From contig CBDBFU010000025.1 of assembly GCA_965205025.1 (NCBI GenBank), positions 1 to 64,000 of the forward strand: DNA of 64,000 bases. The letters run 5' to 3'. The notes under the pieces are model-generated. The model was not told where the DNA came from. It did not search any database and saw nothing but the letters and a program-made list of their open reading frames with translations. The DNA comes from Candidatus Poribacteria bacterium. GTDB taxonomy: Bacteria > Poribacteria > WGA-4E > WGA-3G. Position 1 is the first letter of the stretch. Each line of letters starts with the position of its first letter. The position numbers were made by a program, and so were the translations under genes. Positions 1 to 53,455 of this stretch are shown piece after piece.

Positions 1-1
1 C

Positions 2-1350: not shown

Positions 1351-1680
1351 TTAACGCCAGTTTGATAATAAAAAACGTCAGATCGATAAACAGAATTTTG
1401 TCCTGAAGATAGTCTTTGTAGCACAAACTTTCATGAAGATTAAGTAAATATTTCGGTAATTCTAATTTTCCCAAACCCGGTAGGCGGGGAATGCTAAATA
1501 GCATTCATACCGTTGATTTGCGGTTTCCTAACCACGGGGAATGCCATAAGGCATTCATACCGTTGATTTGGATCTTATCTTTAAAATTACCGAATTTAAA
1601 AATTAATCTTCATCCAGTTTGTGCACTCTGGTGTTGACTAAAAGATCGGGGTACAATGTGTATTATCAAACTCACGTTAA
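1351..1680. mobile_element. MITE-like element with TTAACGNNAGTTTGATAATA TIRs, interrupted by a nested element
   Basis: Left TTAACGCCAGTTTGATAATA; reverse complement of right TTAACGTGAGTTTGATAATA. An uninterrupted near-identical body lies at about 12294-12431. Confidence 0.75.
1433..1613. mobile_element. Hairpin-loop-inserted MITE (ATGAAG family), copy 1
   Basis: TIRs ATGAAGATTAA...TCGGTAATT / AATTACCGA...TTAATCTTCAT. Splits the hairpin GCACAAACT-TTC|CC-AGTTTGTGC; the empty version is at 12354-12375. Confidence 0.85.
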
Positions 1681-1713
1681 AAATACTATCAGAAAAGAAA
1701 GGTATCATAAATT

Positions 1714-4293
1714 ATGAAAACTGTTTCCTATACAATATTTCTTATTTTATATTTAATTGTCATTCCATTCTCATACAATTGTTTTGCCCAAGATTCCCCA
1801 CAATGGCATCTACCTGTTGGTGCTACAAAACGTCTTGGTAAAGGTTGGCTTTATGAACTTCAATACTCCCCTGATGGCAATCAACTTGCCGCTGCAGGTT
1901 CATTAGGGGTTTGGATCTACGATACAAAAACAGATGAAGAAATTGCTCTCTACCCAGGTGAAGGATGGGGTATTTCATCACTCACCTATTCTCCTGATGG
2001 TTCGATGCTTACCGCAGGAAGTGCAAATGGTATCATTCGAATATGGGATCCCATGACAGGTGTGATACAACATCAAATTGACGCACATTGGAGAAGTATT
2101 AGAAGTCTTGCATTCAACTCTGATGGGTCAATTCTCGCCAGTGGGAGTAGAGATAGAACGATTCGTTTATGGAACCCACAGACGGGTGAATTTCTTCATA
2201 CATTAAGAGGTCATACAGATGGAGTCAATAGTGTTACATTCAATGGTGATGGTACTTTATTAATCAGTGGTAGTCGTGATGATTCAATCAGGATTTGGGA
2301 TGTTGACACAGGAGTACAAATACAATCTCTTGAAGTACATCGTGATAATGTAGCACATGTTGTTGTGAGTCCAGATGGTAAAACTCTTGCCAGTGGGGAT
2401 TTAAACTCCATTATCCATCTATGGGATACTACTACATGGACAGTAAAACAGACTCTCCTCGGTCATACATCTCATATTTATCACATGGTCTATAGTCCTG
2501 ATGGCAGTATCCTGGCAAGTGCAGGTGAAGATGATACGATACGATTGTGGAACGCGGATACAGGTGAACAACTAAATAGTATCACTGAACATACAGCAGA
2601 TATATTTGGTCTTGCTTTCACACCTGATGGGTCAGTACTTACAAGTGGGGCATGGGACGCATCTATCCGTTCATGGGATCCTCAAACAGGTGAACATATT
2701 AAGACAATTACCGGACATACAGATGCAGTCGTTAGTGTCACCTTCAGTGGAGATGGTAGTATTCTCGCGACTCGCAGTTGGGATAAAACCATTCGTTTGT
2801 GGGATGCTGATACAGGGCAACTTCGACACACTCTCATAGGCCACCAAGATGATGTCGACATTGTCGTGTTTAGTCCAGATGGTAGAACTCTCGCCAGCGG
2901 AAGTCAAGACAATACCGTTCGTCTATGGGATGCAATCACTGGGGAACATATTAAGACACTCAGAGGACACTATTCCTATCTTATTAGTTTAGCATTTAGT
3001 CCAGATGGTAGTATACTTGCAAGTGGTAGTGAGGACGACAGCATCCGGTTATGGAATGTTGCTAATGGTAGATATATCGGTGGTTTATTCGAACATGAAG
3101 CCGGTGTTGAAACCCTTTCTTTTAGTCCTGATGGGACAATGCTGGCAAGTGGAAGTCGAGATGACAAAATCATTATATGGGATCTCGAAACAAGGGATGT
3201 AATCCGAACTATTAGTGAACATGAAGACGATGTCTGGACAGTTGCATTCAGTCCAGATGGTAAGAAACTCGCAAGTGGCGGTAGGGACACGGTATCTTTA
3301 TGGGATGTTCAGATGGGTGAACTTCTACAAACATTTCGTAGACCCCTTAACGTTGATACAACAGTTAGTATACCAGAAGATTTAGATGGTGATACACCAA
3401 CAGACCTACCAGCAACAGCAACAAGTATCGTTTTTTCTCCAGATGGAAAAGTACTTGTGAGTGGAAGTTATGATGCTACAATACGGCTATGGGATACAAC
3501 TACAGGTGAACAACTGTCAACATTAGATGGACATACATATTCAATCACAAGTGTAGCCGTTAGTCCAGATGGTAGTACCATAGCAAGTGGTAGTTTCGAT
3601 GGAACTGTCATTCTATGGGCGTTCCCGCTTCCATTTACGACGACCCAATTACTTACTATACTTGCAGATGTGAATAACGATGGTGATGTCAATGTTCTTG
3701 ATATTGTACTGGTGGCATCAAGTTTCGGGCAATCGGGTGAGAGTCCTGCGGATATTAATGGGGATGGTGCTGTAGACCTATTAGATCTCTATCTGGTTGG
3801 AAATGCAATAGCCAATATAGAATCCGCGCCAGCAATCCAAGCTTATGCCAGAGAAAATCTCACGGCAGAACAGGTTGAAGAATGGTTGACACTGGCAAAG
3901 CAAGAATTAACCCAAATTGGTAACCTCACTCATCAAGAACAAGTCACCTATCATACCGGAATAGATGTTCTGGAACAACTCCTACAAACATTGATACCTA
4001 AACAGACACAATTGTTAGCTAATTATCCAAACCCATTCAATCCGGAAACTTGGATACCCTATACTTTAACAGCTTCAGCAGATGTATCGATTACAATACA
4101 TTCATCGGATGGTAAGTTGGTTCGTACATTACTCATTGGCAATAAACCTGCGGGGATATACCAAAATCCTTCTGACGCAGCCTATTGGAATGGAAATAAT
4201 GACTATGGTGAAGCTGTTGCAAGTGGTGTCTATTTTTATACGCTCACTGCGGGAGATTTCACATCCACACGGAAGATGTTTATACGGAAGTAA
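1714..4293 (+). CDS. Secreted WD40-repeat protein with dockerin/EF-hand-like domain and FlgD-Ig/T9SS-CTD-like C-terminus
   Basis: Signal peptide; about 13-14 GH...WD repeats; DVNNDGDVNVLD and DINGDGAVDLLD loops; LLANYPNPFNPETWIPY...ASGVYFY tail. Confidence 0.9.
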   Translation: MKTVSYTIFLILYLIVIPFSYNCFAQDSPQWHLPVGATKRLGKGWLYELQYSPDGNQLAAAGSLGVWIYDTKTDEEIALYPGEGWGISSLTYSPDGSMLTAGSANGIIRIWDPMTGVIQHQIDAHWRSIRSLAFNSDGSILASGSRDRTIRLWNPQTGEFLHTLRGHTDGVNSVTFNGDGTLLISGSRDDSIRIWDVDTGVQIQSLEVHRDNVAHVVVSPDGKTLASGDLNSIIHLWDTTTWTVKQTLLGHTSHIYHMVYSPDGSILASAGEDDTIRLWNADTGEQLNSITEHTADIFGLAFTPDGSVLTSGAWDASIRSWDPQTGEHIKTITGHTDAVVSVTFSGDGSILATRSWDKTIRLWDADTGQLRHTLIGHQDDVDIVVFSPDGRTLASGSQDNTVRLWDAITGEHIKTLRGHYSYLISLAFSPDGSILASGSEDDSIRLWNVANGRYIGGLFEHEAGVETLSFSPDGTMLASGSRDDKIIIWDLETRDVIRTISEHEDDVWTVAFSPDGKKLASGGRDTVSLWDVQMGELLQTFRRPLNVDTTVSIPEDLDGDTPTDLPATATSIVFSPDGKVLVSGSYDATIRLWDTTTGEQLSTLDGHTYSITSVAVSPDGSTIASGSFDGTVILWAFPLPFTTTQLLTILADVNNDGDVNVLDIVLVASSFGQSGESPADINGDGAVDLLDLYLVGNAIANIESAPAIQAYARENLTAEQVEEWLTLAKQELTQIGNLTHQEQVTYHTGIDVLEQLLQTLIPKQTQLLANYPNPFNPETWIPYTLTASADVSITIHSSDGKLVRTLLIGNKPAGIYQNPSDAAYWNGNNDYGEAVASGVYFYTLTAGDFTSTRKMFIRK

Positions 4294-4310
4294 GATGACA
4301 ACATAGAAAC

Positions 4311-4341
4311 AAAAGGAAGGACGTAATGTCCTTCCTTTTTT
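4311..4341 (+). terminator. Intrinsic terminator (potentially bidirectional)
   Basis: AAAAGGAAGGAC-gtaat-GTCCTTCCTTTTTT just after the stop at 4293. Confidence 0.8.
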
Positions 4342-4490
4342 ATTTTAACCTAACGTGAGATCGGTATAAGCAATATTATCCTCTTTGTAGGAAGGATTCC
4401 AATTCCCGATTCTTACATTTCTTCTGTAGGAGGGAACTCCGATTCCCGATTCTCTTTGTAGAAACGGTTGAAATGTCTATAGTAAACTTT

Positions 4491-4591
4491 ATGAGGATTA
4501 AGTAAATATTTCGGTAATCCTGGCCATAAACTTATCGTAGGGGCGGGGTTAACCCGCCCGTATATTACCGATTTAAAAAATTAATCTTCAT
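4491..4591. mobile_element. Hairpin-loop-inserted MITE (ATGAAG family), copy 2
   Basis: ATGAGGATTAAG...TCGGTAAT / ATTACCGA...TTAATCTTCAT. Flanks rejoin as AAACT-TT|TT-AGTTT. Carries the GTAGGGGCGGGGTTAACCCGCCC hairpin. Confidence 0.8.
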
Positions 4592-4821
4592 TTAGTTTGT
4601 GCCTCATAGTGCCGCAAACTAAAAGTTTTCGGTATAAATAGAAATCCATAAGCTTGTGCAACTTGCTTCAGACAAAATGTGCATCCATTCTTGTGTAATG
4701 GTAAGAAGTTCTCATATATGAAAATTTAATCAAACATTGAACAAATTACCCATCACAAAAAGGAGAATAGTTCTTTAGGTAATTCAATTAAGAATGAACC
4801 TATAACCGTGCAGATATATCT

Positions 4822-6102
4822 ATGAAAAATAAAATAAGAGATACAGTTGAAATACCCTCTTTTTCCAATGAGGATAATGAAGAATTGAAATTATGTATAG
4901 AAAACCTGAAAAGAATTGGTAATGCACTCCAAGACTATGAACGAGATAATAATACATTTCCAGAGTGGCTTTCCGACCTATATCCTACCTATTTAGAAGA
5001 TAACAACTATCTCATCTGCCCCGCTGATGAGGATAAAGGCATACAAATTCTGCCTTATGATGTTGATCCAAACCTACCCGTAAGTTATTCCTATGACTGT
5101 GATCCAGAGTATTATGAAAGATGGATGAAACAGGAACGACAAGTTTATAGTGATGCAAATCCAATCGTTAGATGTACCCATCACGGCAATATAGAGTCAG
5201 ATTCTTCTTTACTCACCAATCTCCATATAAATTTGAGCTTTTCAAATTCTATTTATATATCTGAAGGAGATTGGAGGAAGTCTCCAGTAGAAATGTATGG
5301 AGGACTTGAAGAAGCAATATCTGCATACGAAAATGCAATCGAACTCGTACCTGAAGATCCAAGTTTCTTCAATCTATATTCTGAGCTTATTCGTCTCTAT
5401 GTTACCACCGACCGAGAAAAAGATGCGGAAAACCTTATTGATAGTTTCAAATCCATTATGAAACCACATGATGAAGACATCATGCGGTTCCGAGATTATT
5501 TTACGCTTTTGGAAATGTTACGTGCATGCAACAAACATCAAGATGCACTTCAGCTGTGTGAGAATCTTGAAAGAACAGAAAAGAAAAACCCATGGCTAAA
5601 GAGTCTTTATCGGGAATTGGCAGTGACTCACGAAGAACTGGGTAATATCGAACTTGCAGATACGTATTTTGGTAAGTATGATTCAAAGCGGGAGATGATT
5701 GGAAAACCTGCTCCTGATTTTTCTAAAATAGATATTGAGGGCAACCCTATTTCACTCAAAGATTATCAAGGAAAAGTTGTACTTATCGACTTTTGGGGAA
5801 TGCCTTGCGGTCCCTGTATTGCCGAAATGCCAAATATACTGAAGGTCTATAATACATATAATCATCTCGGTTTTGAGGTAATCGGAGTTATGGTTAACTA
5901 TGATGAAGAGGAACTCAATAAATATCTATCTAAGTGTAAACTACCATGGCGACTGATAAATGAAGGAAACGATAGTATACTTAAAAAGTTATACCATGTT
6001 CGCGGGATACCATCCCCATGGCTTATTGATAGGCAGGGAATTGTGATTTCGTATCAAGCAAGAGGTGCGAAATTGAAAAAGCTTGTTGAAGAAGCTTTAT
6101 AG
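4822..6102 (+). CDS. TPR-like plus TlpA/AhpC-TSA thioredoxin-fold protein with pseudopilin-like N-terminal domain
   Basis: C-terminal IGKPAPDF...GKVVLIDFWGMPCGPC...GIPSPWLIDRQG; helical TPR-like middle region. Confidence 0.8.
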   Translation: MKNKIRDTVEIPSFSNEDNEELKLCIENLKRIGNALQDYERDNNTFPEWLSDLYPTYLEDNNYLICPADEDKGIQILPYDVDPNLPVSYSYDCDPEYYERWMKQERQVYSDANPIVRCTHHGNIESDSSLLTNLHINLSFSNSIYISEGDWRKSPVEMYGGLEEAISAYENAIELVPEDPSFFNLYSELIRLYVTTDREKDAENLIDSFKSIMKPHDEDIMRFRDYFTLLEMLRACNKHQDALQLCENLERTEKKNPWLKSLYRELAVTHEELGNIELADTYFGKYDSKREMIGKPAPDFSKIDIEGNPISLKDYQGKVVLIDFWGMPCGPCIAEMPNILKVYNTYNHLGFEVIGVMVNYDEEELNKYLSKCKLPWRLINEGNDSILKKLYHVRGIPSPWLIDRQGIVISYQARGAKLKKLVEEAL

Positions 6103-6339
6103 TAAAATCCATAATTACTTGAACACAACGGTAGGTTCGGTTTCCTAACCGAACCTATGTCCAATCGTGCGGTTAGATGAGGATTAAGTTTTAAATTCGG
6201 CAATTCTCATTATTCCAAACCCTGTAGGTTCGGTTTCCTAACCGAACTGAATTTCCTATCACATTACCGAATTATTATTTTAATCTTCATGAAACCGCAC
6301 CTACCAGGGAGTGTAAACTTATTTTTGGATTTCACTATA
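6098..6339. mobile_element. MITE-like element with TATAGTRAAATCCA TIRs; holds a REP doublet and a nested MITE
   Basis: Left TATAGTAAAATCCATAATTACTTGAACAC; reverse complement of right TATAGTGAAATCCAAAAATAAGTTTACAC. TA at both ends. Confidence 0.75.
6177..6290. mobile_element. Hairpin-loop-inserted MITE (ATGAAG family), copy 3
   Basis: Same TIRs as copies 1-2. Flanks rejoin exactly as GTGCGGTT-AG|GA-AACCGCAC, which is found intact at 53304-53323. Confidence 0.88.
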
Positions 6340-6348
6340 AAATCATAA

Positions 6349-7542
6349 CTAAGGACAATGTTGATCAAGAACAGTTTCAGAATCAACTTGAATTCTAACA
6401 GGTTTATAATAGGTCTTAATCCTCTCTATATCCACTTCCACACCAAGACCAGGATCATCTTTTACACGGACTAAACCATCAGCATCAATTTGAAACGGAT
6501 TCTTCACAATACATTCTGATAACTCAGAACCTGCTGCGGGATATTCCAATAGATTAAAATCTGGATTCGTGGCAAAAATATGAAGTGATGCTGCCAGACT
6601 CAGATGACTCTTAAATGTATGGTTTACATATTGAATACCGTTTTGTTCGGCAAGTTGTCTAACCTGAAAAGAAGGGTATATCCCACCAATACGGCCAGCA
6701 TCTATTTGCACATAATCAATGCCACCATTTACGATTATATCCTCAGCCATGCGAAACGTGCTTGAACCTTCACCAGCTGCAATTGATACGGATGGATTTT
6801 TAGATTTTAATGTACTATATGCTTCAACCGCATCAGGTCCAAGGGGTTCTTCCAACCATGTTGGAGAAAATTCAGAAAATACTTCAGCTCGTTCAAATGC
6901 TGTTTCGTAATCTATTCCCCAAACTACTCCTGCATCAATCATTATCTGGTTATCATTCCCCATACCTTCACGGGCAGCCCGAACAAGTGCAATATCATTC
7001 TCCTCACCGTACTTTCCCATAGGTCCCCAACCGAATTTTGCTGCTTGATAACCCCTTTCCTCTAAATCTACTGCTATTTGGTATGTGTCTTCAGGTGTAT
7101 CCCCAAAAAGAACTGATGCGTATGGTAACTTTGCTTGAGGGGTTTTAGGGGTATCAGTCATCTCAGCAAGTAAGCTATAAATCGGTTGCTTTAATTTCTT
7201 ACCGATAATATCCCAGAGAGCAATTTCAGCTCCACTATAGGCATGATGTATCTGCTGAATGTCTAATGCATTTCTCAGGACTTTATCACTTAATCGGAGA
7301 ATATCCTCAGGAGAATCAAGTGTTTCACCAATCAACGAAGTGCGAATATTGATTATATTTCCATGCGACATCGGACAACAATATACCGCAATACTTACCA
7401 AAGGTGATGCATCACATTCTCCCCAACCTTCTATGTCTTCATCCGTACGGATTCTGACTAAGAGAGTATCCTGAGTACCATCTGCAGCTGATGTAATCTC
7501 TGGCATCCGTAAATAGAATGGGTCTACAGAAACTATTTTCAT
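6349..7542 (-). CDS. Mandelate racemase/muconate lactonizing enzyme family enolase
   Basis: EGWGE, IALWDIIGK, IMIDAG, WLEEP, AAGE, and PGLGVEVD motifs. Confidence 0.9.
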   Translation of the reverse strand: MKIVSVDPFYLRMPEITSAADGTQDTLLVRIRTDEDIEGWGECDASPLVSIAVYCCPMSHGNIINIRTSLIGETLDSPEDILRLSDKVLRNALDIQQIHHAYSGAEIALWDIIGKKLKQPIYSLLAEMTDTPKTPQAKLPYASVLFGDTPEDTYQIAVDLEERGYQAAKFGWGPMGKYGEENDIALVRAAREGMGNDNQIMIDAGVVWGIDYETAFERAEVFSEFSPTWLEEPLGPDAVEAYSTLKSKNPSVSIAAGEGSSTFRMAEDIIVNGGIDYVQIDAGRIGGIYPSFQVRQLAEQNGIQYVNHTFKSHLSLAASLHIFATNPDFNLLEYPAAGSELSECIVKNPFQIDADGLVRVKDDPGLGVEVDIERIKTYYKPVRIQVDSETVLDQHCP

Positions 7543-8045
7543 TCTTCTACTGCTATGTCTTCGTCTGATGAATCTGTTTCTTCAGATGGAATTGCTGTGA
7601 TTGACTGTTCCATTTGTTCACTTGTAGCTTCAGCTAATGAACGAATTACTGAGATGGCAAACCAACTAACTAATCCGGCTGCCGCACCAGCACATACAGC
7701 AATGGCTGCACCTTTAGGAGAGGTAAATTTATCTAATGTCTCATTATCTACTGTACATGAAATATTACTTATATTTCTAATCGCAACACCTCTGGTTTCA
7801 CCGGAGTGTAGGTATTCTACGGTAGGAGAATCGTCAGATTCTATTTCTATATTTGCATTCATATCCTCTGTATCAACTGCATAACTTCTATCACCTTGTT
7901 CTCCGATCCAACTTGCTTTCAGACCCCGAACACCTGTATCATCATGGATAGGTTCAACACGGGTATTGGTGAGAATCCTACCAAGAAAACCTAAGGTTAA
8001 GTCTTTAGATTTGGATACTGCTGAACGTAATTTTGTTGTATTCAT
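7539..8045 (-). CDS. Hypothetical protein with a C-terminal transmembrane helix
   Basis: 168-aa ORF with GGAG RBS; ATGA overlap with the next gene; hydrophobic AAIAVCAGAAAGLVSWFAISVI segment. Confidence 0.6.
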   Translation of the reverse strand: MNTTKLRSAVSKSKDLTLGFLGRILTNTRVEPIHDDTGVRGLKASWIGEQGDRSYAVDTEDMNANIEIESDDSPTVEYLHSGETRGVAIRNISNISCTVDNETLDKFTSPKGAAIAVCAGAAAGLVSWFAISVIRSLAEATSEQMEQSITAIPSEETDSSDEDIAVEE

Positions 8046-8256
8046 ATCTTGTTCTCCTTTATATTTTATGAAATTCTATTTTCACATATTCATTTAAAAA
8101 ATGCAACCCTATTAGATTACAGGGGTGTGTAAAGTTTATGGCATTAACAAGCATCAAATGAAACCGATCAAACATTTTTATAAAATTAAAAAATGAAGAA
8201 AACACCCATCTCTAACAACTAACATACATATATCAAAAAAACAGAAAAACATAATA

Positions 8257-8400
8257 ATGAGGATTAAGTTTTAAATTCGGTAATTCCCATTTTCCCAAAC
8301 TTGGTAGGTTCGGTTTCCTAACCACGGGGAATGCTAAATAGCATTCATACCGTTGAAACGATTTTCTAACACATTACCGAATTATTATTTTAATCTTCAT
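8257..8400. mobile_element. Hairpin-loop-inserted MITE (ATGAAG family), copy 4
   Basis: Same TIRs. Flanks rejoin as AAACATAA-TA|AA-TTATGTTT. Confidence 0.85.
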
Positions 8401-8568
8401 AATTATGTTTGTCTAAATGAAAATAAAATTATACCATATTATATAGTTCATATTATATTTACTAATACTACAATAGTTTGGACAATTATTATTCATGAAC
8501 AAGCTGAGTTTCTAATGATTAGTCTTTTTTGTGAGTTTTCTATATCTGTGGAATCCTACAAGAATACC

Positions 8569-8640
8569 GCACTCCAGCGGAGTGCTATGTCTATAGATAA
8601 CATTATCGGTACATTCTTGCACTCCAGCGGAGTGCTATGT
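8569..8640. repeat. Tandem pair of GCACTCC-AGC-GGAGTGC-TATGT hairpin repeats
   Basis: Two identical palindromes. A third copy is at 53411-53430. Confidence 0.8.
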
Positions 8641-9180
8641 GTTGATTCACAATATACCGCTCCGATGGAACAATGAGGGTTATATTTATGTTTAAAGTTA
8701 GAAATAATACTGATGAAGTAAACCGATTACTTAGAATGAGTTTACATATGAAGTGTCCAAACTATAGGCATACTAAAACAATGCTAATACATTACACGAA
8801 AAACGATCCTAATTACGAAATCTTATATACGTCAAAAAGCATACCTTTTTATCCGTTGGGAATGTAAAAATCAGGAAGCACAACAAAAACACAAAATCAC
8901 ACTTTTTCGAAATTCTTATAAAGTCAATTCAAAGTGGAGTAAAGCCAGTCTATGACAGGGGTTACAGGGGTAATTTACACCAATTTCAATGTCACACCGT
9001 GTGACAAAAAGTGTAACTTTTTCATTTTTTCGACCCATACAGAAATGCAACAAAAACACGATCTACTAACTGAGTATTTAGGATTAAATGACTGTTTTTA
9101 CACCTGATTTATAGTCTGTATATTAGGATTAACAATTCTAATTCAGAAGAAACTGAGTATCTAATGATAAGTCTATTTTT

Positions 9181-9401
9181 TATTTAGTTTTAAGAATTCT
9201 CATTTATGAGGTTAAGAAAGAGATTAAGATTGAACAGTAATATTTATCATATTTACTAATCGCTATTCTTCTCTTCTGTAGGAACGATATCCGAATCGCT
9301 ACTCTTTAAGTGTGAGGATTGGCGCGAATCAGTATCGCTTCTTCTATAGATAAGAAATAACAAATGTTATGAAATCTGAATAAAACACCTAAAACTAAAT
9401 A
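9181..9401. mobile_element. MITE-like element (CAGGGTTATTTAGTTTTA family) with internal GTAG-REP
   Basis: TATTTAGTTTTA ... TAAAACTAAATA inverted ends. Same ends at 55230-55467 and 58586-58739. Confidence 0.65.
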
Positions 9402-9466
9402 CCTTGTGATTCAGTAAGATAATCTTTACTATATTCGAGAATTAGGTTAAACTTTCTAAACGCTAA

Positions 9467-10285
<819 letters not shown>

Positions 10286-10288
10286 CGT

Positions 10289-11659
10289 ATGAAGAATGCT
10301 ATAGTTTTAGCAGCAGGATTAGGTCGGAAAGTATGGCCGTATGGTGAATTTCGACAAAAATGTACAATTCCTGTTGCCAATAAACCAATAATTCGTCGAA
10401 TTGTTGAAGATCTGACAAAAGTAGGATGTATCAGGATTATAGTTGTGGTAGGACACTTCGCGCAACAAGTACGGGGGGCAGTTGCGGATCTACCTAATGT
10501 TGAATTTGTTACGCAACCTACACCAGAAGGTACTGCGGATGCTGTTCTCACAGCGCTCAAACAACTTAACGGTGAAGATTATCTGGTAATATACGGTGAT
10601 GTTGTAACCACTTCAGATAATTATCGTTCTTTTATAACAGAGTTCGAAAATAATAATGTAGACGCAGCTGCATTAATTCAATCACTTGGAAGTGAAGATC
10701 CAAGCGATTGGATCTGTGCTAAGACAAATAACGGATCCATTTCAGGAATTGAAGGACATCCGCGGGGTGGTTCCTATCGTCTTGGCGGAATATACGCTTT
10801 TAAGAACTCTGCAACGCAATTCTTAGTTAAGAATACGGGGATTGTAACCCAAGTACCAGTCGGTGGTATGCCTCCACCAGAATCTGAAATTGCGCAATCC
10901 ATTCAACTTATGATAGAGGATGGAAAAGAGGTATTAGTTGTTGAATCAACAGACTTTTTAGTTGATGTTGATAAACCATGGCATGTACTTGAAGCTAATA
11001 ATAGATTTGTAAAGCATCTTACGAAACAAATTGACACAAATCAATTATCAAAGGGGGCTAAAATCTCTGATGCGGCTGAAATTAATGGGAATGTGGTCTT
11101 AGGTGAAAACACTGTTATTGGACCTCGTGTCGTTGTAAATGGAAACCTAATAGCTGGAGCAAATAACAATATTACAAACGGGGCAATTTTACACGGAGAT
11201 ATTTTCATAGGTAATCAATGCCGAATCAGTGATTATTGTGATGTTTCCAGTAGTTCAATTGGAAATAGATGTATTATAGGACATGGGGCTGAATTGGCAG
11301 GTGTATTATTTGACAAAGTATACCTATATCATTATTGTGAAATGTCCGGTGTTTTTGGTTCAGCAACCGATATAGGGGCGGCAACTGTATGCGGAACACT
11401 TCGATTCGATGACCGAGATACACCTATTCAAGTTGAAGGACGTTATGAAATACCCAATTACGGGGCAAATGAAACATACATGGGGGATTATTGTAGAACT
11501 GGTGTGAATGCTATAATTATGCCAGGAAGACGAATTGGTTCTTATAGTGTGGTTGGACCTGGAGTCATTCTATACGAGGACGTTCCCAGTAAGACGATGG
11601 TCATGGCAAAACAAGAATTGATTACCAAACCTTGGGGTCCTGAGAAATATGGCTGGTAG
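10289..11659 (+). CDS. Sugar-phosphate nucleotidyltransferase with left-handed beta-helix (GlmU-like bifunctional)
   Basis: AIVLAAGLG...K; QPTPEGTADA; YGD; C-terminal hexapeptide repeats. Confidence 0.85.
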   Translation: MKNAIVLAAGLGRKVWPYGEFRQKCTIPVANKPIIRRIVEDLTKVGCIRIIVVVGHFAQQVRGAVADLPNVEFVTQPTPEGTADAVLTALKQLNGEDYLVIYGDVVTTSDNYRSFITEFENNNVDAAALIQSLGSEDPSDWICAKTNNGSISGIEGHPRGGSYRLGGIYAFKNSATQFLVKNTGIVTQVPVGGMPPPESEIAQSIQLMIEDGKEVLVVESTDFLVDVDKPWHVLEANNRFVKHLTKQIDTNQLSKGAKISDAAEINGNVVLGENTVIGPRVVVNGNLIAGANNNITNGAILHGDIFIGNQCRISDYCDVSSSSIGNRCIIGHGAELAGVLFDKVYLYHYCEMSGVFGSATDIGAATVCGTLRFDDRDTPIQVEGRYEIPNYGANETYMGDYCRTGVNAIIMPGRRIGSYSVVGPGVILYEDVPSKTMVMAKQELITKPWGPEKYGW

Positions 11660-11686
11660 GCAACTTAGCATATTGGTGAACAATAT

Positions 11687-12073
11687 CTAATCTGAAAGCA
11701 GTTCTTTTAGGAGAGTTGTGAGTTCTTCGTTTCCAGCTGCAAGTTCAAATACTCTATTCTTTTTTCTTTCTATAGCATTTTCATTCTCGGTACTTGTTAT
11801 CGGTTCCCATAGGATTTCAAGGTCTTTAGGATTCAAACGATCATAGTTAACTTTAACAATTGATAAAGCGTAATCATCTGGAATAAGGACTATCCAATCA
11901 ATTGTTTCACCCCGTTCAGAATAACTTCTATCTACTGTTAGTTTGGAATCTTGATAAGGGACGTTTTTCTTAACCCATTGTTTGCGTCCAAGAGCATCAA
12001 TTTCAAAAAGCCCAACCTCTAACCAATTACGACCAGCACCATTGGGTTTAGTGGTAACTTCTATACGATGCAT
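11687..12073 (-). CDS. Hypothetical protein
   Basis: 128-aa ORF with GGAG RBS; no recognisable motif. Confidence 0.6.
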   Translation of the reverse strand: MHRIEVTTKPNGAGRNWLEVGLFEIDALGRKQWVKKNVPYQDSKLTVDRSYSERGETIDWIVLIPDDYALSIVKVNYDRLNPKDLEILWEPITSTENENAIERKKNRVFELAAGNEELTTLLKELLSD

Positions 12074-12293
12074 TTAGTGGTTCTCCAGTATGTAATTAAA
12101 CTGTGATATTTATCCTATATTGGTGGTAGAATATCGTAAGTTTATCACATTTTGATTCTTATTTCAAGACAAGTATAAAAATTGATTCTATAAGATTTAT
12201 GACATCAGGAGTGTTAAAGAAGGTTTTTAATTTCACTTTGTAACAAAGAATACATACTGAACTTAATTGATACTAAACCATACCTATATCATA

Positions 12294-12431
12294 TTTGATA
12301 ATAAAAAATGTCAGTTCCATAAATAGAATTTTGTCCTGAAGATAGTCTTTGTAGCACAAACTTTCCAGTTTGTGCACTCTGGTGTTAACTAAAAGTTCGG
12401 GTTACAATGTGTCTTATCAAACTCACGTTAA
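12294..12431. repeat. Uninterrupted (empty) copy of the 1351-1680 element, left TIR decayed
   Basis: Near-identical to 1361-1432 plus 1614-1680. Intact hairpin GTA-GCACAAACT-TTCC-AGTTTGTGC. Confidence 0.8.
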
Positions 12432-12634
12432 ATAATATAATCAGTTAATGTAGGGGGATTATTTCGATTGAACTATGTGAATATAGAGTAAAAGAATGCT
12501 CACATAATATAGTTGACTTAAAATCTTATTTCATGTTACACTCTCAATGAGCATTCACGCGCAAACTCTCCTATATAATAAGTGTATTTATATGTTCCTC
12601 ATCATTTTATAAAACAGGTCGATGGTATTTTGAT

Positions 12635-13906
12635 ATGCAAATTCACATGAAATATGGACACAGCACAATTCCTATTAATATCCCTGATAAGAATGTTATC
12701 GGTATCATGAAACCTTCAGAAGCGAAGGTTTTACTCGATCCAGATACAATTATACGCCAGTCTATTTCAGAACCAATTGCATCATTACCCTTAGCAGAAC
12801 TTGCTAAAGGACGGAACTCTGCATGTATAGTCATCTCAGATATCACACGACCTGTTCCAAATAAATTGATACTTCCACCTATATTAGAAACACTTGAACG
12901 AGAAGGTATATCACGTAATCAAATAACCATACTCATTGCCACTGGTATTCACCGACCAAATGAAGGAAAGGAACTTGAGGAAATGGTAGGACGTGATATT
13001 ATGAACTCCTATCGAATCGTAAACCATTTTTCTCAAGATCTTGAAACACATGCCAATCTGGGTAAAACTAAGAACGGCACACCTGTTTTTATTGATAAGA
13101 CCTATCTGAACTCCGATTTAAAAATTGCTACGGGGTTAATTGAACCACATCTGATGGCAGGTTATTCTGGAGGTAGAAAAGCCATTTGTCCGGGGATTGC
13201 CTCAATTGAAACAATGAAGGTGATGCATGGTCCTGAGATTATGGAACATCCAAATTGTTCCGTCGGTATATTGGATGGAAACCCTTTCCATATAGAAGCA
13301 ACTGAGATTGCTTTGATGGCAGGTGTCGATTTCAATCTTAATGTCGCAATAGATAAAGATCGACTGATTACCGGTGTATTTGCTGGTGATTTAGTTCAAT
13401 CTCATATCGTTGGGGCAAGATTTGTAGAAGAAAAAGCAACAGCTACAATTTCATCTGCTGCTGATGCAGTCATTGTATCAAGTGCAGGTTACCCTTTGGA
13501 TTCTACATTCTATCAGGCAATAAAAGGTTTATTAACTGCTGTTGAAATCGTTAAAGAGGGTGGTAGTATCTTACTTTTAGCTGCCTGTAGTGAAGGAATT
13601 GGGAGTAAGCCTTTTACTGATTTATTATTCAAGACAGATGATCTAACGGCATTTGTTGATGGATTATATAACCCTGCAAATTTTGTTATAGATCAATGGC
13701 AATTAGAAGAATTAGCTAAAGTGGCGCGGAAAGCGGATATCTATTTCTATTCAGATGGAATACCTTTTCATCAGAGATCGAAGTTATTTGTTCATGCATT
13801 GAAAAACCCACAAGAAGGGATTGAACAGATCTTTCACCAATACGGGGAAGATGTTCAGATTGCTGCTATACCAGAAGGACCGTATGTCCTTGCCAAATTA
13901 GCATAG
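12635..13906 (+). CDS. larA: Nickel-pincer-dependent lactate racemase family protein
   Basis: ISDITRPVP, ATGIHR, IEPHLMAGYSGGRK, and GYPLDSTFYQAIK motifs. Confidence 0.88.
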   Translation: MQIHMKYGHSTIPINIPDKNVIGIMKPSEAKVLLDPDTIIRQSISEPIASLPLAELAKGRNSACIVISDITRPVPNKLILPPILETLEREGISRNQITILIATGIHRPNEGKELEEMVGRDIMNSYRIVNHFSQDLETHANLGKTKNGTPVFIDKTYLNSDLKIATGLIEPHLMAGYSGGRKAICPGIASIETMKVMHGPEIMEHPNCSVGILDGNPFHIEATEIALMAGVDFNLNVAIDKDRLITGVFAGDLVQSHIVGARFVEEKATATISSAADAVIVSSAGYPLDSTFYQAIKGLLTAVEIVKEGGSILLLAACSEGIGSKPFTDLLFKTDDLTAFVDGLYNPANFVIDQWQLEELAKVARKADIYFYSDGIPFHQRSKLFVHALKNPQEGIEQIFHQYGEDVQIAAIPEGPYVLAKLA

Positions 13907-13985
13907 AATACTTCTTGATCGATTTTCAATCTGTATAATCAATTAGTCGGGTAAACTTTGGGAATAACCAAAAGAGCGTGCAATA

Positions 13986-14657
13986 ATGGATACTTCAATC
14001 GTGAAACTCAGAGGATATAAGGATGGGTTACATCTAATCGTCAATCCAAGGATCTCGTTATCTGAGATTGAATTGGCAATTCAAGAACTATTTGCCAAGA
14101 TGAATCAACCGTTAACGGGGACATCAATCCAAATTGATTTGCAACCACCAGTCCTAAATCCTGAAGATTCAAAACATTTAGAAACACACTTGACCGAAAC
14201 CTATAATCTCGTAGTCAACGGTGTAAATATTTTTGGAGAGTCGGGAGAAACCCCTATTCTTGCTGCCCCTGCTACACATAGTATTTCAACTGATCTATCA
14301 CAGGGACAAAATATAGATTTTGATAACGCACAAGTTGTACGACAGACAATTCGATCAGGACAGACAACACGTTGTTTGAGTGGGAGCGTTATCATTTATG
14401 GTGATGTAAACCCAGGAGGTGAAGTCATTTCAGCAGGTGATATTGTTGTACTTGGTGCCTTACGCGGTACAGCACACGCAGGTGCAAATGGGAGACTTTC
14501 ATCTGTAATTGTAGCAATGGAATTAGTGCCTCTACAGCTCCAAATTGGTTCATATGTTAACCGTCCACCAGTTGGACAAAAGCCAAGAGGTTACCCAGAA
14601 ATCGCCAGAGTGGGTGCAGAAGATATAATCATTGTTGAAGAGTTTATTAAGTTCTAA
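13986..14657 (+). CDS. minC: Septum site-determining protein MinC
   Basis: RSGQ...GDVNPGGEVISAGDIVVLGALRGTAHAG; lies upstream of minD. Confidence 0.92.
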   Translation: MDTSIVKLRGYKDGLHLIVNPRISLSEIELAIQELFAKMNQPLTGTSIQIDLQPPVLNPEDSKHLETHLTETYNLVVNGVNIFGESGETPILAAPATHSISTDLSQGQNIDFDNAQVVRQTIRSGQTTRCLSGSVIIYGDVNPGGEVISAGDIVVLGALRGTAHAGANGRLSSVIVAMELVPLQLQIGSYVNRPPVGQKPRGYPEIARVGAEDIIIVEEFIKF

Positions 14658-14674
14658 AGAAGGAAGGTACGATT

Positions 14675-15469
14675 ATGGGAAAGGTTATCGTTATTACTTC
14701 TGGTAAGGGGGGAGTCGGCAAAACGACATCTACTGCGAATATTGGGACTGCTTTAGCCATGATAGGTAAAACAGTAGCAATAATTGATGCTGATGTTGGT
14801 TTACGAAACCTTGATGTCGTGATGGGCTTAGAAAGTAGAATTGTCTTTACATCAATGGATGTTATTGACAAAAGATGTGAACTTGAAAAAGCCCTTGTAA
14901 AAGACCGACGTGTTGAAGATCTAATGCTGCTCGCGGCATCACAACGAAACAGAAAAGACGATATCAAACCTGAACAGATGAAGGATATATGTGGACGTCT
15001 GAAAGAAGACTATGAGTATGTTCTCGTGGATTCACCAGCAGGTATTGAACAAGGGTTCCACAATGCAGCTGCTGGTGCTGACGAAGCCATCATAATTACA
15101 ACACCTGATGTATCTGCAATAAGAGATGCAGATAGAATCATCGGACTCTTACAAAACCAAGGAATTGATCTAATAAATCTAATACTGAATAGATTATCTC
15201 CTACACTCGTTAGAAAAGGTAATATGATTAGCAAAAATGATGTATTAGATATTCTTAACATTGATCTACTCGGTATAGTCCCAGAAGATGCTGGCGTAAT
15301 CGCATCTACAAACCGAGGTGTACCACTTGTACATAACGACGGTTCACCCGGAGCCGATGCGTATATGCGAATAGCACGGCGGATTACTGGACAAAATATC
15401 CCAATTCCTGAAATGCGAGAAGACACTTTCTTCGCTCAGATAATCAACTGGTTCTCAAGAAAGAATTAA
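14675..15469 (+). CDS. minD: Septum site-determining ATPase MinD
   Basis: TSGKGGVGKTT; DADVGLRNLD; DSPAGIEQG; C-terminal amphipathic helix. Confidence 0.97.
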   Translation: MGKVIVITSGKGGVGKTTSTANIGTALAMIGKTVAIIDADVGLRNLDVVMGLESRIVFTSMDVIDKRCELEKALVKDRRVEDLMLLAASQRNRKDDIKPEQMKDICGRLKEDYEYVLVDSPAGIEQGFHNAAAGADEAIIITTPDVSAIRDADRIIGLLQNQGIDLINLILNRLSPTLVRKGNMISKNDVLDILNIDLLGIVPEDAGVIASTNRGVPLVHNDGSPGADAYMRIARRITGQNIPIPEMREDTFFAQIINWFSRKN

Positions 15470-15478
15470 GAGGAAAAC

Positions 15479-15736
15479 ATGGATTTCAGAAGTTTATTTA
15501 CTCGGAAATCAAAGACAAGTGATATTGCAACACAGCGATTGAAACTTGTTCTAACACAAGATAGGTTCGATATAAACGAAGAATCAATGAAGAAACTTCA
15601 GTTTGAGTTAACTCAGGTCTTGGCTAAATATTTTCAATTTACTATGAATTCAGTTAGTATGTCACTTAAACAAGATGGAAATTCATATGTTCTCATGGCA
15701 GATATTCCCTGCGGGAGGATAAACACTGAGCAATAA
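15479..15736 (+). CDS. minE: Cell division topological specificity factor MinE
   Basis: TSDIATQRLKLVLTQDR motif; follows minD. Confidence 0.9.
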   Translation: MDFRSLFTRKSKTSDIATQRLKLVLTQDRFDINEESMKKLQFELTQVLAKYFQFTMNSVSMSLKQDGNSYVLMADIPCGRINTEQ

Positions 15737-15777
15737 TATAATCCTTATACATTTCATAGATTATCTCTTCTGATATA

Positions 15778-16581
15778 CTATTTTAGGATTACTTCATATA
15801 TCGCCTTAGCAACGCCGTTTTCATCATTTGTAGAAGTGATGTAATCGGCGTTTTCTTTTACAGGTTCTACTGCGTTACCCATAGCTATACCAAAACCAGC
15901 AGTTTGTAGCAGACTTTCATCATTATAACTATCACCAAATGCTACAATACTACCTAACGAAATACCATACCTATCAGCAAGAGCTTCCAACGCTCGGCCT
16001 TTCGTAACATTCGGGTTCATAAACTCAATATATTCTGGTTGAGTTTGGGTGACATAAAGTTTTTCACTATATGTAGTTTTATATTCATTCAATAAGGTAG
16101 GTAACTGCTCAGGGGGAAGAATTATGAGTAATTTCGTTGGAGTCTCATCATTAAACTTAGCAAGGTCCCCAACTTGGTTCGCAGGTACACCAGTTCTGGT
16201 TTCGTAAAGTTCACTCCATTTATTTATTTCTGCCACATATAGTTCATCATTCAAACAGAAATTCAGGTGTAAACCCTTTTCAGTACAGTCAGAAACGATT
16301 TCCATTGCATGGTCTGCAGGAACAGGAGTATGATGGAATATCTCGTCAGTTGAAGCGTGTTTGACCATTCCACCATTATAAGAAATAATTGGATTCTGTA
16401 ATCCTATCTGATTGCTAATAGGTAAAATTGAACGGTGCATCCTACCAGAGATTAACACCACAGTTATATTGTTTTTTTCAAGCTCTTGAAGTGCAGTACA
16501 ATTCTCTTCGGATAGTAGATTATCACTATTCAAGAGAGTTCCATCTAAATCAAAAGCTGCTAATTTACACGATATATTCAT
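15778..16581 (-). CDS. Cof-type HAD-IIB hydrolase
   Basis: FDLDGTLL; SGR; TKG; FGDSYND; MGNA. Confidence 0.93.
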   Translation of the reverse strand: MNISCKLAAFDLDGTLLNSDNLLSEENCTALQELEKNNITVVLISGRMHRSILPISNQIGLQNPIISYNGGMVKHASTDEIFHHTPVPADHAMEIVSDCTEKGLHLNFCLNDELYVAEINKWSELYETRTGVPANQVGDLAKFNDETPTKLLIILPPEQLPTLLNEYKTTYSEKLYVTQTQPEYIEFMNPNVTKGRALEALADRYGISLGSIVAFGDSYNDESLLQTAGFGIAMGNAVEPVKENADYITSTNDENGVAKAIYEVILK

Positions 16582-16595
16582 ATAAATTTATAATC

Positions 16596-17714
16596 CTACC
16601 ATAATCCTTGTTCAGTATTTTTATCAAATAAATGCATCTGTTTTTCATCGAAATCTAACCAGATTCTATCACCTATATCAACAGTAAATGTTGGATGTGT
16701 CCTAACTCTGAATAGAATGGGCTCATCCGTATCTTTATGATTACCTAACCTTAAGTCAAGAATATTAACTGCTCCAAGCGGTTCAATCAGGTGTACGTGA
16801 GCAGTTATCTTTCTTCCCATTTCTTGATTTGATGCCGTAATGTGTTCAGGTCTAATTCCTAAGACAAAATCAGAAGCAGATTCTCTTTGCTTTATTATAG
16901 ACTGTTGCTGCGGTGATAGATCTATCTGAATATCTGTATGGTGTAACTGTAAGACAAGATCACCATTGTTAGTTGTACATTCTACATCAAGCAAATTCAT
17001 AGAAGGACTACCCATAAATCCTGCAACAAAAAGACTTTTTGGTTTGTTGTAAACCTCATTAGGTGTTCCAATTTGTTGTAAGACTCCCTGATGCATTACT
17101 GCTATTCTATCAGCAAGAGACATAGCTTCAACCTGATCATGTGTCACAAATATCGTTGTCGCCCCTATTTCATGCTGTAACCGTTTTATTTCAGCACGTG
17201 TATCAATACGGAGTTTTGCATCTAAATTTGCCATAGGTTCGTCTAATAGATATACTTTCGGTTGACGTACCATTGCCCGACCTAAAGCTACACGTTGCAT
17301 TTCACCACCACTGAGAACACCGGGTTTTCTTGATAGAAGTTCGGTAATCTGTAGTATCTCAGCAACTCTCTTAACTTGCGAATCAATCTCTGCCTTCTCT
17401 ACTTTCACTGCTTTTAATGGAAAGGCAATATTATCATACACACTTAGATGAGGATATAATGCATAGAACTGAAATACAAATGCGATATCCCGATCTGCAG
17501 GTGATAAATTATTCACACGCTGCCCATCAATGAGGATATCGCCTTCTTCTGGGTGTTCAAGTCCTGCAATTATGCGAAGTGTTGTCGTCTTACCGCAACC
17601 GGAAGGACCTAAAAATACAACAAACTCTTTGTCTTCGACGACAAGGTTGAAGTCTCTAACAGCAACCACATTTCCAAAACGTTTAACGATATTTTCTAAT
17701 CTGATTTCTGCCAT
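16596..17714 (-). CDS. Carbohydrate ABC transporter ATP-binding protein (MalK/UgpC type)
   Basis: GPSGCGKTT; LSGGEMQRVALGR; LLDEP; VTHDQVEAM; TOBE region (GIRPEH). Confidence 0.93.
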   Translation of the reverse strand: MAEIRLENIVKRFGNVVAVRDFNLVVEDKEFVVFLGPSGCGKTTTLRIIAGLEHPEEGDILIDGQRVNNLSPADRDIAFVFQFYALYPHLSVYDNIAFPLKAVKVEKAEIDSQVKRVAEILQITELLSRKPGVLSGGEMQRVALGRAMVRQPKVYLLDEPMANLDAKLRIDTRAEIKRLQHEIGATTIFVTHDQVEAMSLADRIAVMHQGVLQQIGTPNEVYNKPKSLFVAGFMGSPSMNLLDVECTTNNGDLVLQLHHTDIQIDLSPQQQSIIKQRESASDFVLGIRPEHITASNQEMGRKITAHVHLIEPLGAVNILDLRLGNHKDTDEPILFRVRTHPTFTVDIGDRIWLDFDEKQMHLFDKNTEQGLW

Positions 17715-17831
17715 TTAATTACAATCTGTATTACTCATACATCACATTAGTGTAATTACTGGGTGTAAGGATTTCTACACAGAATATTGAAGAATCCATC
17801 TACACCAGAGATTACGAAAACACAGAATATA

Positions 17832-18632: not shown

Positions 18633-18690
18633 AGTTCTAACTCCTCTGATTTTCTATTGTGTGACAGTATTCGAGTTATGACAGTATTCG

Positions 18691-19518: not shown

Positions 19519-19573
19519 AATACGATTTCCTTTCTTTTTTCAGCATAGACAATAACTTAAAATCTGTTAGATG

Positions 19574-43591: not shown

Positions 43592-43594
43592 ACA

Positions 43595-47608: not shown

Positions 47609-47623
47609 TATATGGATACATTA

Positions 47624-49611: not shown

Positions 49612-49625
49612 CCGAAGACTGTTAC

Positions 49626-51865: not shown

Positions 51866-52045
51866 CTAATTTTATTCTATCTGATTATCTCTATAATACA
51901 TCAATTAATTTATAACAAAGACAAGGTGTTATGGCTGTAGTGCTGTATTTAATAAAACAATGTACTACATAAAGTTAGAATCTACGTTAACGAGAATGAT
52001 GCAAACTCACAATATGTAGTACAGTCAGGTTAATGTTATAAATAA

Positions 52046-53146
52046 CTATAGTTTCCCTAATTCTGTCAGGATCTGTGCGGTAGGTACACGATGGTTTGTT
52101 GTTCCAAGAGTTGTCCAAGCAACAGTTCCATCTAATTTAATGACAAAGCCAGATGGACGTGCGATCCTTTTATTGTTTGGATCAATTACATTATATGCAC
52201 CAATCGTTTCTCTTTCAGAATCAGAAAGAACTGGAAACTTTAACTTTCTATTTTCAACAGAATTTTTCGTGGCTGCTTGATTATCAGAACTAATAGCGAT
52301 TAATTCTGCGCCTTCAGCTTTAATTTTGTCATAGTTTTGCTGCAACTCAACGAGTTGGTCTAAGCAGAATGGTCACCACCCACCTCTATAAAATATGACA
52401 ACGACTTTCTTACTTCCGATAAGATCTTGAAGAGCCAACAAATCACCGTCACCATTGGGAAGTTCAAAAACGGGTGCTTCACTTCCAATGCTCAAACCTT
52501 GACCTGGATCTAATTCCTCAATTACAGGAATTGCTGTGAGGGCTACATCCAATCCATAGGTTTCATTTGCTGCTATAGGATCAATATTAACTATTCCGTC
52601 ATTATATCCTTCAAGTGAGACCATTATTGTAAATGCTTGATCAACAGGGAGATTCTCAATTATAAATGTACCATCAGCTGTGGTTAAAGTTTCATGCTTT
52701 TCACCAGACTTATCTGTTAATTGGACAAGTACACCTGATAATTTATCTCCGGTTTCGGCATCTGTTAGCATACCTTTTATGTGTGATACAGGAACGGCTG
52801 ATTTTACGAGTGAAATTCTATCTAAAGATTTTGTTTCCCCTGCAGTAACAGATGCATTTAATTCTGTCGATTCATATCCTTGTGCAGACACTTGAACGGT
52901 ATAACTACCTGCTTCAAGTTCTTTAAACTCATAACTACCATCTGCTTCAACTTGTGCAACAAGGATTCCATCCTTTAACAGTCTTACTTGAACTGTAACA
53001 CCATCAATAGAATCCACTTCCCCCATGAGTGTACTCGGTTCAATTTCGACTTCTGGTGTGGGGTCGACTGGATCTTCAGTAGATCCACAACCAAATAAGA
53101 CCAATATCAAGATTGGTAATATGAGAAACAAATGTAAATGTTTCAT
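52046..53146 (-). CDS. Selenoprotein: lipoprotein with two carboxypeptidase-regulatory-like domains plus AhpC/TSA peroxiredoxin-like domain (UPFC motif), 366 aa
   Basis: ORFs 52373-53146 and 52046-52345 are in frame. Reading through TGA 52373-52375 gives VVVIFYRGGW-U-PFC-LDQLVELQQNY (canonical FYRGxWCPxC). LFGC lipobox. Confidence 0.92.
52343..52357 (-). promoter_or_regulatory. Putative bacterial SECIS apical hairpin
   Basis: Identical CAACUC-GUU-GAGUUG at the same 21-nt spacing; possible lower stem UGCU/AGCA. Confidence 0.7.
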
Positions 53147-53187
53147 GATTTTGTTCCTTTAAATCAATAATTCTTCATTAAATATAT

Positions 53188-53455
53188 CCCAAGTTGCTAC
53201 TAACTGATTTTGATCGTTTCAACACAGTTTTTCAGACTCTTTCCTCACCCCAGATGAAGTTAAAGAATTTATTCGGGTAATTTCCAGTTTCTTGTAGAAT
53301 CCTGTGCGGTTAGGAAACCGCACCTACCAGCTCTGGGTCCAAATTACCTATTTTATTTTTTTTAACTTCATGAGGGGTGATATGTCTATAGAAAGGTATA
53401 TCAACGCCCTGCACTCCAGCGGAGTGCTATATAAGTAAATAGGTGGCAACTTGGG
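53188..53455. mobile_element. MITE-like element with CCCAAGTTGCYAC TIRs and a possible 8-9 bp target duplication
   Basis: Left CCCAAGTTGCTAC; reverse complement of right CCCAAGTTGCCAC. TTAAATATA on both flanks. Contains a nested MITE and a GCACTCCAGCGGAGTGC hairpin. Confidence 0.72.
53254..53371. mobile_element. Hairpin-loop-inserted MITE (ATGAAG family), copy 5 (divergent)
   Basis: ATGAAGTTAAA...GGTAATTT / AAATTACC...TTTAACTTCAT. Flanks rejoin as TCACCCC-AG|GA-GGGGTGA. Confidence 0.85.

Follow-up and report, generated by a model that had tools for sequence, protein, structure and literature searches.

Insertion at TA is regarded as characteristic of the IS630/Tc1/mariner superfamily as a whole. 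For ISY100 of Synechocystis, the published report describes insertion almost exclusively at TA, with the TA duplicated (PMC2170065). Here we describe an IS630-family insertion sequence (IS) and a MITE family (miniature inverted-repeat transposable elements) that has the same terminal inverted repeats (TIRs), in which TA targeting has likely been replaced by targeting of hairpin tips, the IS presumably mobilising the MITEs in trans. The MITEs came to light in a window of 64,000 nucleotides, positions 1 to 64,000 of contig CBDBFU010000025.1 (G000:C25:1-64000), from the 5.66-Mb, 33-contig genome of a Candidatus Poribacteria bacterium (GCA_965205025.1). The IS resembles ISY100 and Mos1 in family and fold, with an HTH-HTH region plus a DDE RNase-H-like domain, and in being a single-open-reading-frame (ORF) IS of about 1.2 kb with TIRs of about 27 bp that spawns MITEs. 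It differs from them in taking the hairpin tip as target and in its usual 1-nt flanking repeat, TA|TA flanks being found at only 2 of 152 copies. It differs further in the spacing of its catalytic aspartate and glutamate (D-E), 61 residues versus 32 in an ordinary IS630-like element of the same genome.

Palindromic repeats are known targets of other elements. IS1397 and ISKpn1, of the IS3 family, insert in the loop of palindromic units (PUs) with 3–4-bp repeats and are restricted to one repetitive extragenic palindrome (REP)/PU family. IS110-family elements such as IS621 and ISPpu10 lack TIRs, and a bridge or seek RNA directs their DEDD recombinase to a single specific sequence; a structural component has reportedly been proposed of late for ISPpu10 targeting. 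The IS110 REP targeters share with the present element repeated palindromic intergenic targets, whereas a DDE_3 domain, 27-bp TIRs and many targets are found here. IS200/IS605 elements carry an HUH Y1 transposase and subterminal hairpins rather than TIRs, and insert 3' of a fixed tetra- or pentanucleotide; in contrast, the long copies here encode no HUH Y1 protein, TIRs are present and insertion falls inside variable loops. ISPsy8 is reported to insert where a predicted REP hairpin has its axis of symmetry, with a 3-bp direct repeat and within one REP family (PMC1525189). The REP-targeting ISs (IS1397, ISKpn1 and ISPsy8) thus also insert inside palindromic repeats, but each is bound to one host REP family, whereas the present element uses dozens of stems and an IS630 transposase. 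IS1272 of Staphylococcus aureus, an IS1182-family element, uses inverted-repeat (IR) targets of varied size and sequence and replaces the target IR, and no ordinary target-site duplication is described (PMC5678879). Inverted-repeat targets of diverse sequence are common to both systems, but the IR is lost there and both arms are kept here, and the transposase families differ. The closest mechanistic analogue is the RAG1/2 transposase, which in vitro is reported to favour, in extruded cruciforms, the four nucleotides at the tip, with effects of tip sequence (PMC1618415); unlike the present case, the preference is shown in vitro by a eukaryotic recombinase of an unrelated family and is not how a transposon family lives in nature. 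In the open-access papers searched, we found no IS630/Tc1/mariner transposase described as targeting hairpin tips (ISfinder was outside the scope of this search).

The TIR end pattern matches ten times in the window, forming five pairs, against 0.01 matches expected from shuffles. These pairs delimit five plus-strand MITEs whose positions, ends and flanking arms agree with a first-pass annotation of the window; one splits its host hairpin 3|2 and four split theirs 2|2 (loop bases on either side of the element). Copy 1 (1433–1613; 181 bp), with TIRs a few bases off the IS TIR, interrupts an S4-type repeat, the left arm (1421–1429) and loop bases TTC occupying 1421–1432 and the loop bases CC and right arm (1616–1624) occupying 1614–1624. 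Copies 2 to 4 also show the TIR pattern with paired ends. Copy 2 (4491–4591; 101 bp) lies in a degenerate hairpin between a 5-bp left arm (4484–4488) followed by TT (4484–4490) and TT followed by the right arm at 4594–4598 (flank feature 4592–4602). Copy 3 (6177–6290; 114 bp) separates an 8-bp left arm (6167–6174) and loop bases AG (6167–6176) from loop bases GA and an 8-bp right arm (6293–6300; feature 6291–6300). The host of copy 4 (8257–8400; 144 bp) is AT-rich, with its left arm at 8247–8254 and loop bases TA (8247–8256), then AA and the right arm at 8403–8410 (8401–8410). Copy 5 (53254–53371; 118 bp), of a third subfamily, has 7-bp arms at 53245–53251 and 53374–53380, leaving AG on the left (53245–53253) and GA on the right (53372–53380).

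The annotation had placed no transposase gene in the window, which a tblastn search bore out, with no homologue of the enzyme described below on the window's contig. It had also left the transposase unnamed; a search for long copies with the same TIRs yielded a 1,241-bp IS of the IS630 family. The IS has perfect TIRs of 26–27 bp, of which the MITE ends are versions with few changes, and a single 384-aa ORF (395 aa if read from an upstream GTG); eight intact copies are at least 99.9% identical. The protein scores 181.6 bits against the NCBIfam IS630 model NF033545 (cutoff 100; E = 2.4e-53) and matches Pfam DDE_3 (E = 1.4e-22), HTH_32, HTH_29 and HTH_23. The closest PDB structures to an AlphaFold2 model built from a 39-sequence alignment (predicted local distance difference test score, pLDDT, 82; an earlier 15-sequence model with pLDDT 57 was discarded) are chains of the Mos1 mariner transpososome (E 9e-9 to 2e-7), followed by Sleeping Beauty. 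By these profile and predicted-fold matches the transposase is an IS630-family (Tc1/mariner-type) DDE enzyme. Its second Asp and its Glu, D273 and E334, are 61 residues apart; in the IS630 family the spacing from the second D to E/D is usually in the low to mid 30s. Between D273 and E334 lies a conserved insertion of about 28 aa in which Q290, P299, W302 and L316–I318 are invariant. The genome supplies an internal contrast in the second, ordinary IS630-like element (1,161 bp), whose three copies (G000:C15:~265.9-267.1 kb, C24:~59.1-60.3 kb and C12:~314.3-315.5 kb) have D-32-E spacing, are TA-flanked and do not lie in hairpins. The MITE family is non-coding and comprises at least 126 short copies in at least three subfamilies, 96–99% identical within a subfamily, and is presumably mobilised in trans by the 384-aa transposase of the 1,241-bp IS.

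We then took the analysis genome-wide. A strict form of the end pattern is matched 277 times. Relaxing it raises the number of ends to 455, of which 151 are unpaired and some spurious, and yields 152 plus/minus end pairs at most 3 kb apart, which form the copy set used here (126 of at most 200 bp, 14 of 201–700 bp, seven of about 1,241 bp and five above 1.5 kb). Upon in silico excision, the rejoined flanks form a perfect stem of 6 bp or more across the junction in 122 of the 152 copies (at least 7 bp in 113), both target arms being kept at these sites, and two unpaired bases lie on each side (2|2) in 98 of the 122. The seven paired IS copies are all in hairpins split 2|2. Random genome positions form such stems in 1.4% of cases at any offset and in 0.025% at a fixed 2|2 split, and moving the left boundary by 1–3 nt lowers the fixed-2|2 count from 105 to 0–4. 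The whole-genome test of junction position that the annotation had proposed came out in its favour, far above these controls. When left and right flanks are re-paired between copies, a mean of 37 of 152 still form stems because many sites share arm families, so that this control gauges family sharing rather than chance. Genome-wide, the 122 sites carry 43 distinct stem sequences, from GC-rich to AT-rich, and therefore the arms do not travel with the element, a possibility that the annotation had raised against its own proposal. This geometry and this diversity of stems can be read from the assembled sequence itself, and they uphold the view that the MITEs insert at the centre of unrelated hairpins.

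Further stems are struck in other genomes. Database searches returned 749 relatives of the transposase, many on contigs of about 1,241 bp; 80 loci were sampled, nearly all from about 15 Candidatus Poribacteria metagenome-assembled genomes (MAGs) plus one actinomycete MAG, and 74 had recognisable ends. Arms of at least 6 bp flank 67 of the 74 full-length IS copies, 52 of these being split 2|2. Around the actinomycete copy (L124; 41% identity) the flanks form a perfect palindrome whose arms are 15 bp long. In G031, the GCGCGGTT...AACCGCGC hairpin family has 73 empty members, with triloops, including CCA and TGG, in 49 of the 50 listed, and its filled sites read CC|CA and TG|GG. MITE sites in three further species (G005, G012 and G016) comprise 39 distinct sites, of which 26 have stems of at least 6 bp, 17 are split 2|2 and 32 show the 1-nt repeat. 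A cyanobacterial link, suggested by the small dispersed repeats of Nostoc and the Nezha MITE, was rejected, the related loci coming from Candidatus Poribacteria instead; published work on Anabaena 90 and Thiomargarita proved to have no bearing on the present element.

The annotation had further held that insertion leaves no target duplication, and this was not borne out. Identical bases stand immediately before and after the element at 110 of the 122 hairpin sites (57 of 68 distinct sites), as it does at 21 of the 30 sites lacking a perfect stem and at 51 of 67 IS sites in other genomes. We also searched the genome with the rejoined 70+70-nt flanks of each copy, finding a spanning paralog at 114 sites, 100 of them usable (at least 85% identity and at most two mismatches near the junction). 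Relative to the rejoined flanks, the paralogs were 1 nt shorter at 73 sites, equal at 11, 1 nt longer at 15 and otherwise different at one. These comparisons point to a target duplication, usually of one base (N1N2N3 becoming N1N2|N2N3), the pre-insertion state being taken from paralogs and not from orthologous empty sites.

Length changes follow the loop of the empty hairpin. In ACAAACT...AGTTTGT, the commonest target family, 84 empty members have 3-nt and 58 have 4-nt loops. When this family is divided by longer flanks, the invariant empty loops TTC, TCC, TTT, GAA, GGA and AAA correspond to the filled forms TT|TC, TC|CC, TT|TT, GA|AA, GG|GA and AA|AA, respectively. Tetraloops are unchanged (AAAT to AA|AT, ATAA to AT|AA and, in another genome, TGCA to TG|CA). 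All 15 sites with a −1 change belong to the GAATGNC...GNCATTC family, whose empty members mostly have the pentaloop TAAAT/ATTTA (54) and whose filled members read TA|AT or AT|TA at 21 of 30 sites. That two loop bases are left on each arm at any loop length is the statement that fits most sites; a fixed 1-nt stagger fits the S4 sites, and fails at pentaloop and tetraloop sites. Two other accounts were tried and rejected. A shorter element with a TA or AT duplication predicts empty forms found at 0 of 54 (+TA) and 1 of 54 (+AT, spurious) distinct sites. A hidden pool of GAATG hairpins with TAT triloops, as source of the TA|AT sites, met with 0–3 triloop members per genome across 40 genomes of the genus, TAT/ATA triloops in GAATG hairpins occurring once in all of them.

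The host sites in the window can be read against the same paralogs. At copy 1 the empty TTCC becomes TTC|CC, the best paralogs being 1 nt shorter in 12 of 12. At copies 3 and 5 AGA becomes AG|GA: the best long paralogs of the copy 3 site (97.5% and 96.7% identity over 120 nt) have the triloop AGA and are one base shorter, and for copy 5 the paralog falls short by 1 nt in nine of the 12 best listed, mostly with loop AGA. Paralogs of the copy 4 site are odd palindromes, 1 nt shorter, whose central A is doubled in the filled site; the genome-wide flank search gave no usable paralog for the copy 2 site. Both hairpins that the annotation had taken for empty versions of targets are present, each to be read differently. 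The one at 12354–12375 (S4-type, 9-bp arms, loop TTCC) is an unoccupied paralogous site for copy 1, and the single C by which it differs is the base found on both sides of copy 1, that is, the repeated base. The one at 53304–53323 lies within copy 5; this 20-nt unoccupied hairpin, GTGCGGTT-AGGA-AACCGCAC, represents the family struck by copy 3 in a tetraloop variant.

Under the reading that we favour, the IS and the MITEs would integrate at the dyad axis, or loop tip, of short hairpins or cruciforms with stems of almost any sequence. The two strand transfers would be placed symmetrically, each arm retaining two loop bases. Because of this symmetry, a triloop would gain one base, its central base appearing on both sides as an apparent 1-bp duplication, a tetraloop would gain nothing and the TAAAT pentaloop family would lose its central base. 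Preferred targets would be triloops closed by a 5'-pyrimidine/3'-purine pair. The target is probably recognised as an extruded hairpin and not as B-form DNA, and the chemistry, by analogy with ISY100, may be cut-and-paste.

The competing account that survives best, itself improbable, is sequence-directed targeting of B-form DNA, in which a symmetric transposase dimer would recognise a weak palindromic consensus around the insertion point without extrusion of a hairpin. It draws support from slight preferences at −3/+3 (Y/R) and −2/+2 (T, T/C), and palindromic target consensus sequences are said to have been reported for other DDE transposons. A weak consensus, however, cannot yield perfect complementarity over 7–15 bp across at least 43 unrelated stems. 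With the set collapsed by arm, stem columns carry at most 0.22 bits, apart from one position and its partner at about 0.5, and are thus nearly uninformative, whereas the arms are perfectly complementary. Nor would a fixed stagger on B-DNA leave two bases per arm at loops of 3, 4 or 5. The first-pass claim that structure rather than sequence is recognised fits the stems, and gives way in part at the loop, where there is a closing-pair preference and element orientation tracks the loop strand. By these site counts targeting is not purely structural, triloops with a 5'-pyrimidine/3'-purine closing pair being preferred. Empty hairpins with stems of at least 7 bp number 1,149 triloops, 1,046 tetraloops and 564 pentaloops in the genome, and in the ACAAACT family filled sites derived from triloops number about 50 for 84 empty triloops, but those from tetraloops only 4 for 58 empty ones. 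The census as a whole covers about 3,200 perfect hairpins with loops of 3–6 nt on stems of at least 7 bp, among which 5'-Y/3'-R closing pairs are in excess (708 vs 441 in triloops, 764 vs 282 in tetraloops).

The paralog comparison bears on the account closest to the first-pass annotation, in which some transposase yet to be named recognises hairpins and inserts bluntly, without duplication. In its favour are the 11 of 100 sites with no length change, the exact empty 20-mers found for 7 of 54 distinct sites and perfect even palindromes split at mid-centre (TG|CA five times; L124, L137 and L161). It would have to explain away both the 1-nt direct repeat and the shorter paralogs at the counts given above, and the transposase has since been identified, so that we judge it very unlikely.

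Element orientation offers a further view of the reaction. In most MITEs the two ends differ, one being close to the IS TIR and the other diverged, with ATGAGGATTAAG at its start. Sites that combine a stem of at least 6 bp with a 2|2 split number 98; the 21 with same-type ends were set aside, and in the other 77 the diverged end was placed on the left. The loop then reads TTTC at 24 sites and its complement GAAA at 1, and likewise TCCC at 11 (GGGA 2), TAAT at 10 (ATTA 0), TTTT at 8 (AAAA 2), TCCT at 6 (AGGA 3) and GTTT at 4 (AAAC 0), so that orientation follows the loop strand by 63 to 8 across six loop families. Counted by distinct combinations of MITE subtype and loop, the bias is 41 to 8 and therefore does not stem from one amplified composite. 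The IS, with identical ends, shows no clear bias in G031 (CC|CA 16 vs TG|GG 9). We infer that the two ends are used unequally, probably sequentially, on two strand-specific loops. For ISY100 in vitro, single-end insertions are reported as the commonest product (PMC2170065).

The same combinations bear on the proposal that few real insertions took place, the hairpin repeats being themselves mobile or duplicated and amplified with a MITE already inside. Most targets do lie in 120–140-bp repeat families with near-identical flanks, and some MITE groups are 100% identical. Yet the 77 oriented sites hold 55 distinct combinations of MITE subtype and loop family, the number of distinct stems is 43, IS and MITE lineages of other species strike other hairpin families, and nearly identical IS copies of the source genome occupy different GAATG variants and one unrelated stem; there is little chance that amplification accounts for the pattern. 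Least credible of all is random insertion followed by selection sparing copies in harmless loops, for although the host hairpins lie in intergenic repeats where insertions are likely neutral, other intergenic positions are equally neutral, selection cannot give single-nucleotide precision at a dyad axis where a 1-nt boundary shift abolishes the signal, and the IS copies, being at least 99.9% identical, have not been in place long enough for purifying loss to have thinned them much.

Several observations weigh against hairpin-tip targeting or against a simple form of it. At 30 of the 152 copies there is no perfect stem of at least 6 bp, and most targets come from a few repeat families, so that the copies are not all independent and composite amplification of a repeat plus its MITE is possible. 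Sequence preference is evident in the 27 sites collapsed by arm sequence, 25 of which have a 5'-pyrimidine/3'-purine closing pair and 17 of which have T as first loop base. Three S4 sites (TTCC to TTC|CC and its complement) and two unchanged triloop sites are exceptions to the rule of two bases per arm; a fixed 1-nt stagger is violated by the 15 pentaloop sites and about 11 zero-change sites, and no one rule fits all. The comparison with sister genomes and reads that the annotation had suggested gave no filled/empty pair, leaving the duplication rule to rest on paralogs. No orthologous pair was found against the closest genomes, G004 (about 90–92% over genes) and G018 (about 86–92%), whose intergenic regions do not align and the first of which lacks the whole hairpin repeat plus MITE at copy 1. 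The reverse search, with the flanks of 16 MITE sites of G004 and G018 against the source genome, gave no clean filled/empty pair either, and over window positions 1–20000 the read-derived Logan contigs (runs X14 and X15) end at every repeat, with no joint across any element. Among distant metagenome relatives (33–48% identity; 33 with both flanks), about half lie outside palindromes and 5 of 33 have TA|TA flanks; perfect palindromes with arms of at least 10 bp surround 6 and with arms of at least 5 bp surround 10. On these flanks, the hairpin habit is old in the clade but not universal.

A more specific mechanism is possible, if rather doubtful. The transposase might act as a ruler, joining the ends 2 nt 5' of the 3' arm on each strand, so that the duplication would equal 4 minus the loop length (+1, 0 or −1), with the ends acting sequentially and unequally on strand-specific hairpins and the 28-aa insertion between D273 and E334 as a candidate hairpin reader. 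As part of this same doubtful proposal, the dependence of orientation on the pyrimidine-rich loop strand, absent for the IS with its identical ends, would mean that the ends act in sequence and unequally, and insertion could occur on single-stranded DNA at replication forks. If the ruler holds, a mariner-type DDE enzyme would have become an integrase specific for structure.

A clade in nature that had exchanged TA for DNA shape would show target choice rewired within one of the best-understood transposase folds. This one numbers hundreds of copies in many genomes, its 1-bp flanking repeat is unusual and its footprint varies with loop length. It would also offer in vivo evidence of short palindromes being extruded or folded in bacterial chromosomes often enough to be struck, and the compact 384-aa enzyme would be a candidate tool for structure-directed integration. 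The same habit may help account for the accumulation of small repeats as nested mosaics in the intergenic DNA of these sponge-associated genomes.

The MITEs themselves contain such repeats. Their interiors (window positions 1479–1517, 1531–1569, 6217–6247, 8307–8357 and 53304–53323) are assembled from shared small hairpin modules, namely GAATG...CATTC plus ATACCGTTGAT, GGTAGG plus TTCGGTT-TCCT-AACCGAA, and GTGCGGTT-AGGA-AACCGCAC; copy 1 has two GAATG...CATTC modules. The interior modules also serve as insertion targets elsewhere, which makes the repeats nested mosaics. Nesting extends to the long copies, those of 1,590/1,594 bp being MITEs with a nested IS4-family element (ORF of 463 aa, 211 bits on NF033592) at L002 (G000:C26:41679-43668), G000:C32:142925-144514 and C28:219249-220842. 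Hairpin repeats cluster around copy 3, where an intact GGTAGG-hairpin module (6130–6157) lies 10 bp upstream of the host hairpin and the stretch 6100–6339 has no counterpart in G004. Between copy 4 and the next gene lies a repeat of about 390 bp (8799–9191), which recurs at no fewer than eight other loci of the genome (89–96% identity) and is also present in G004 and G018.

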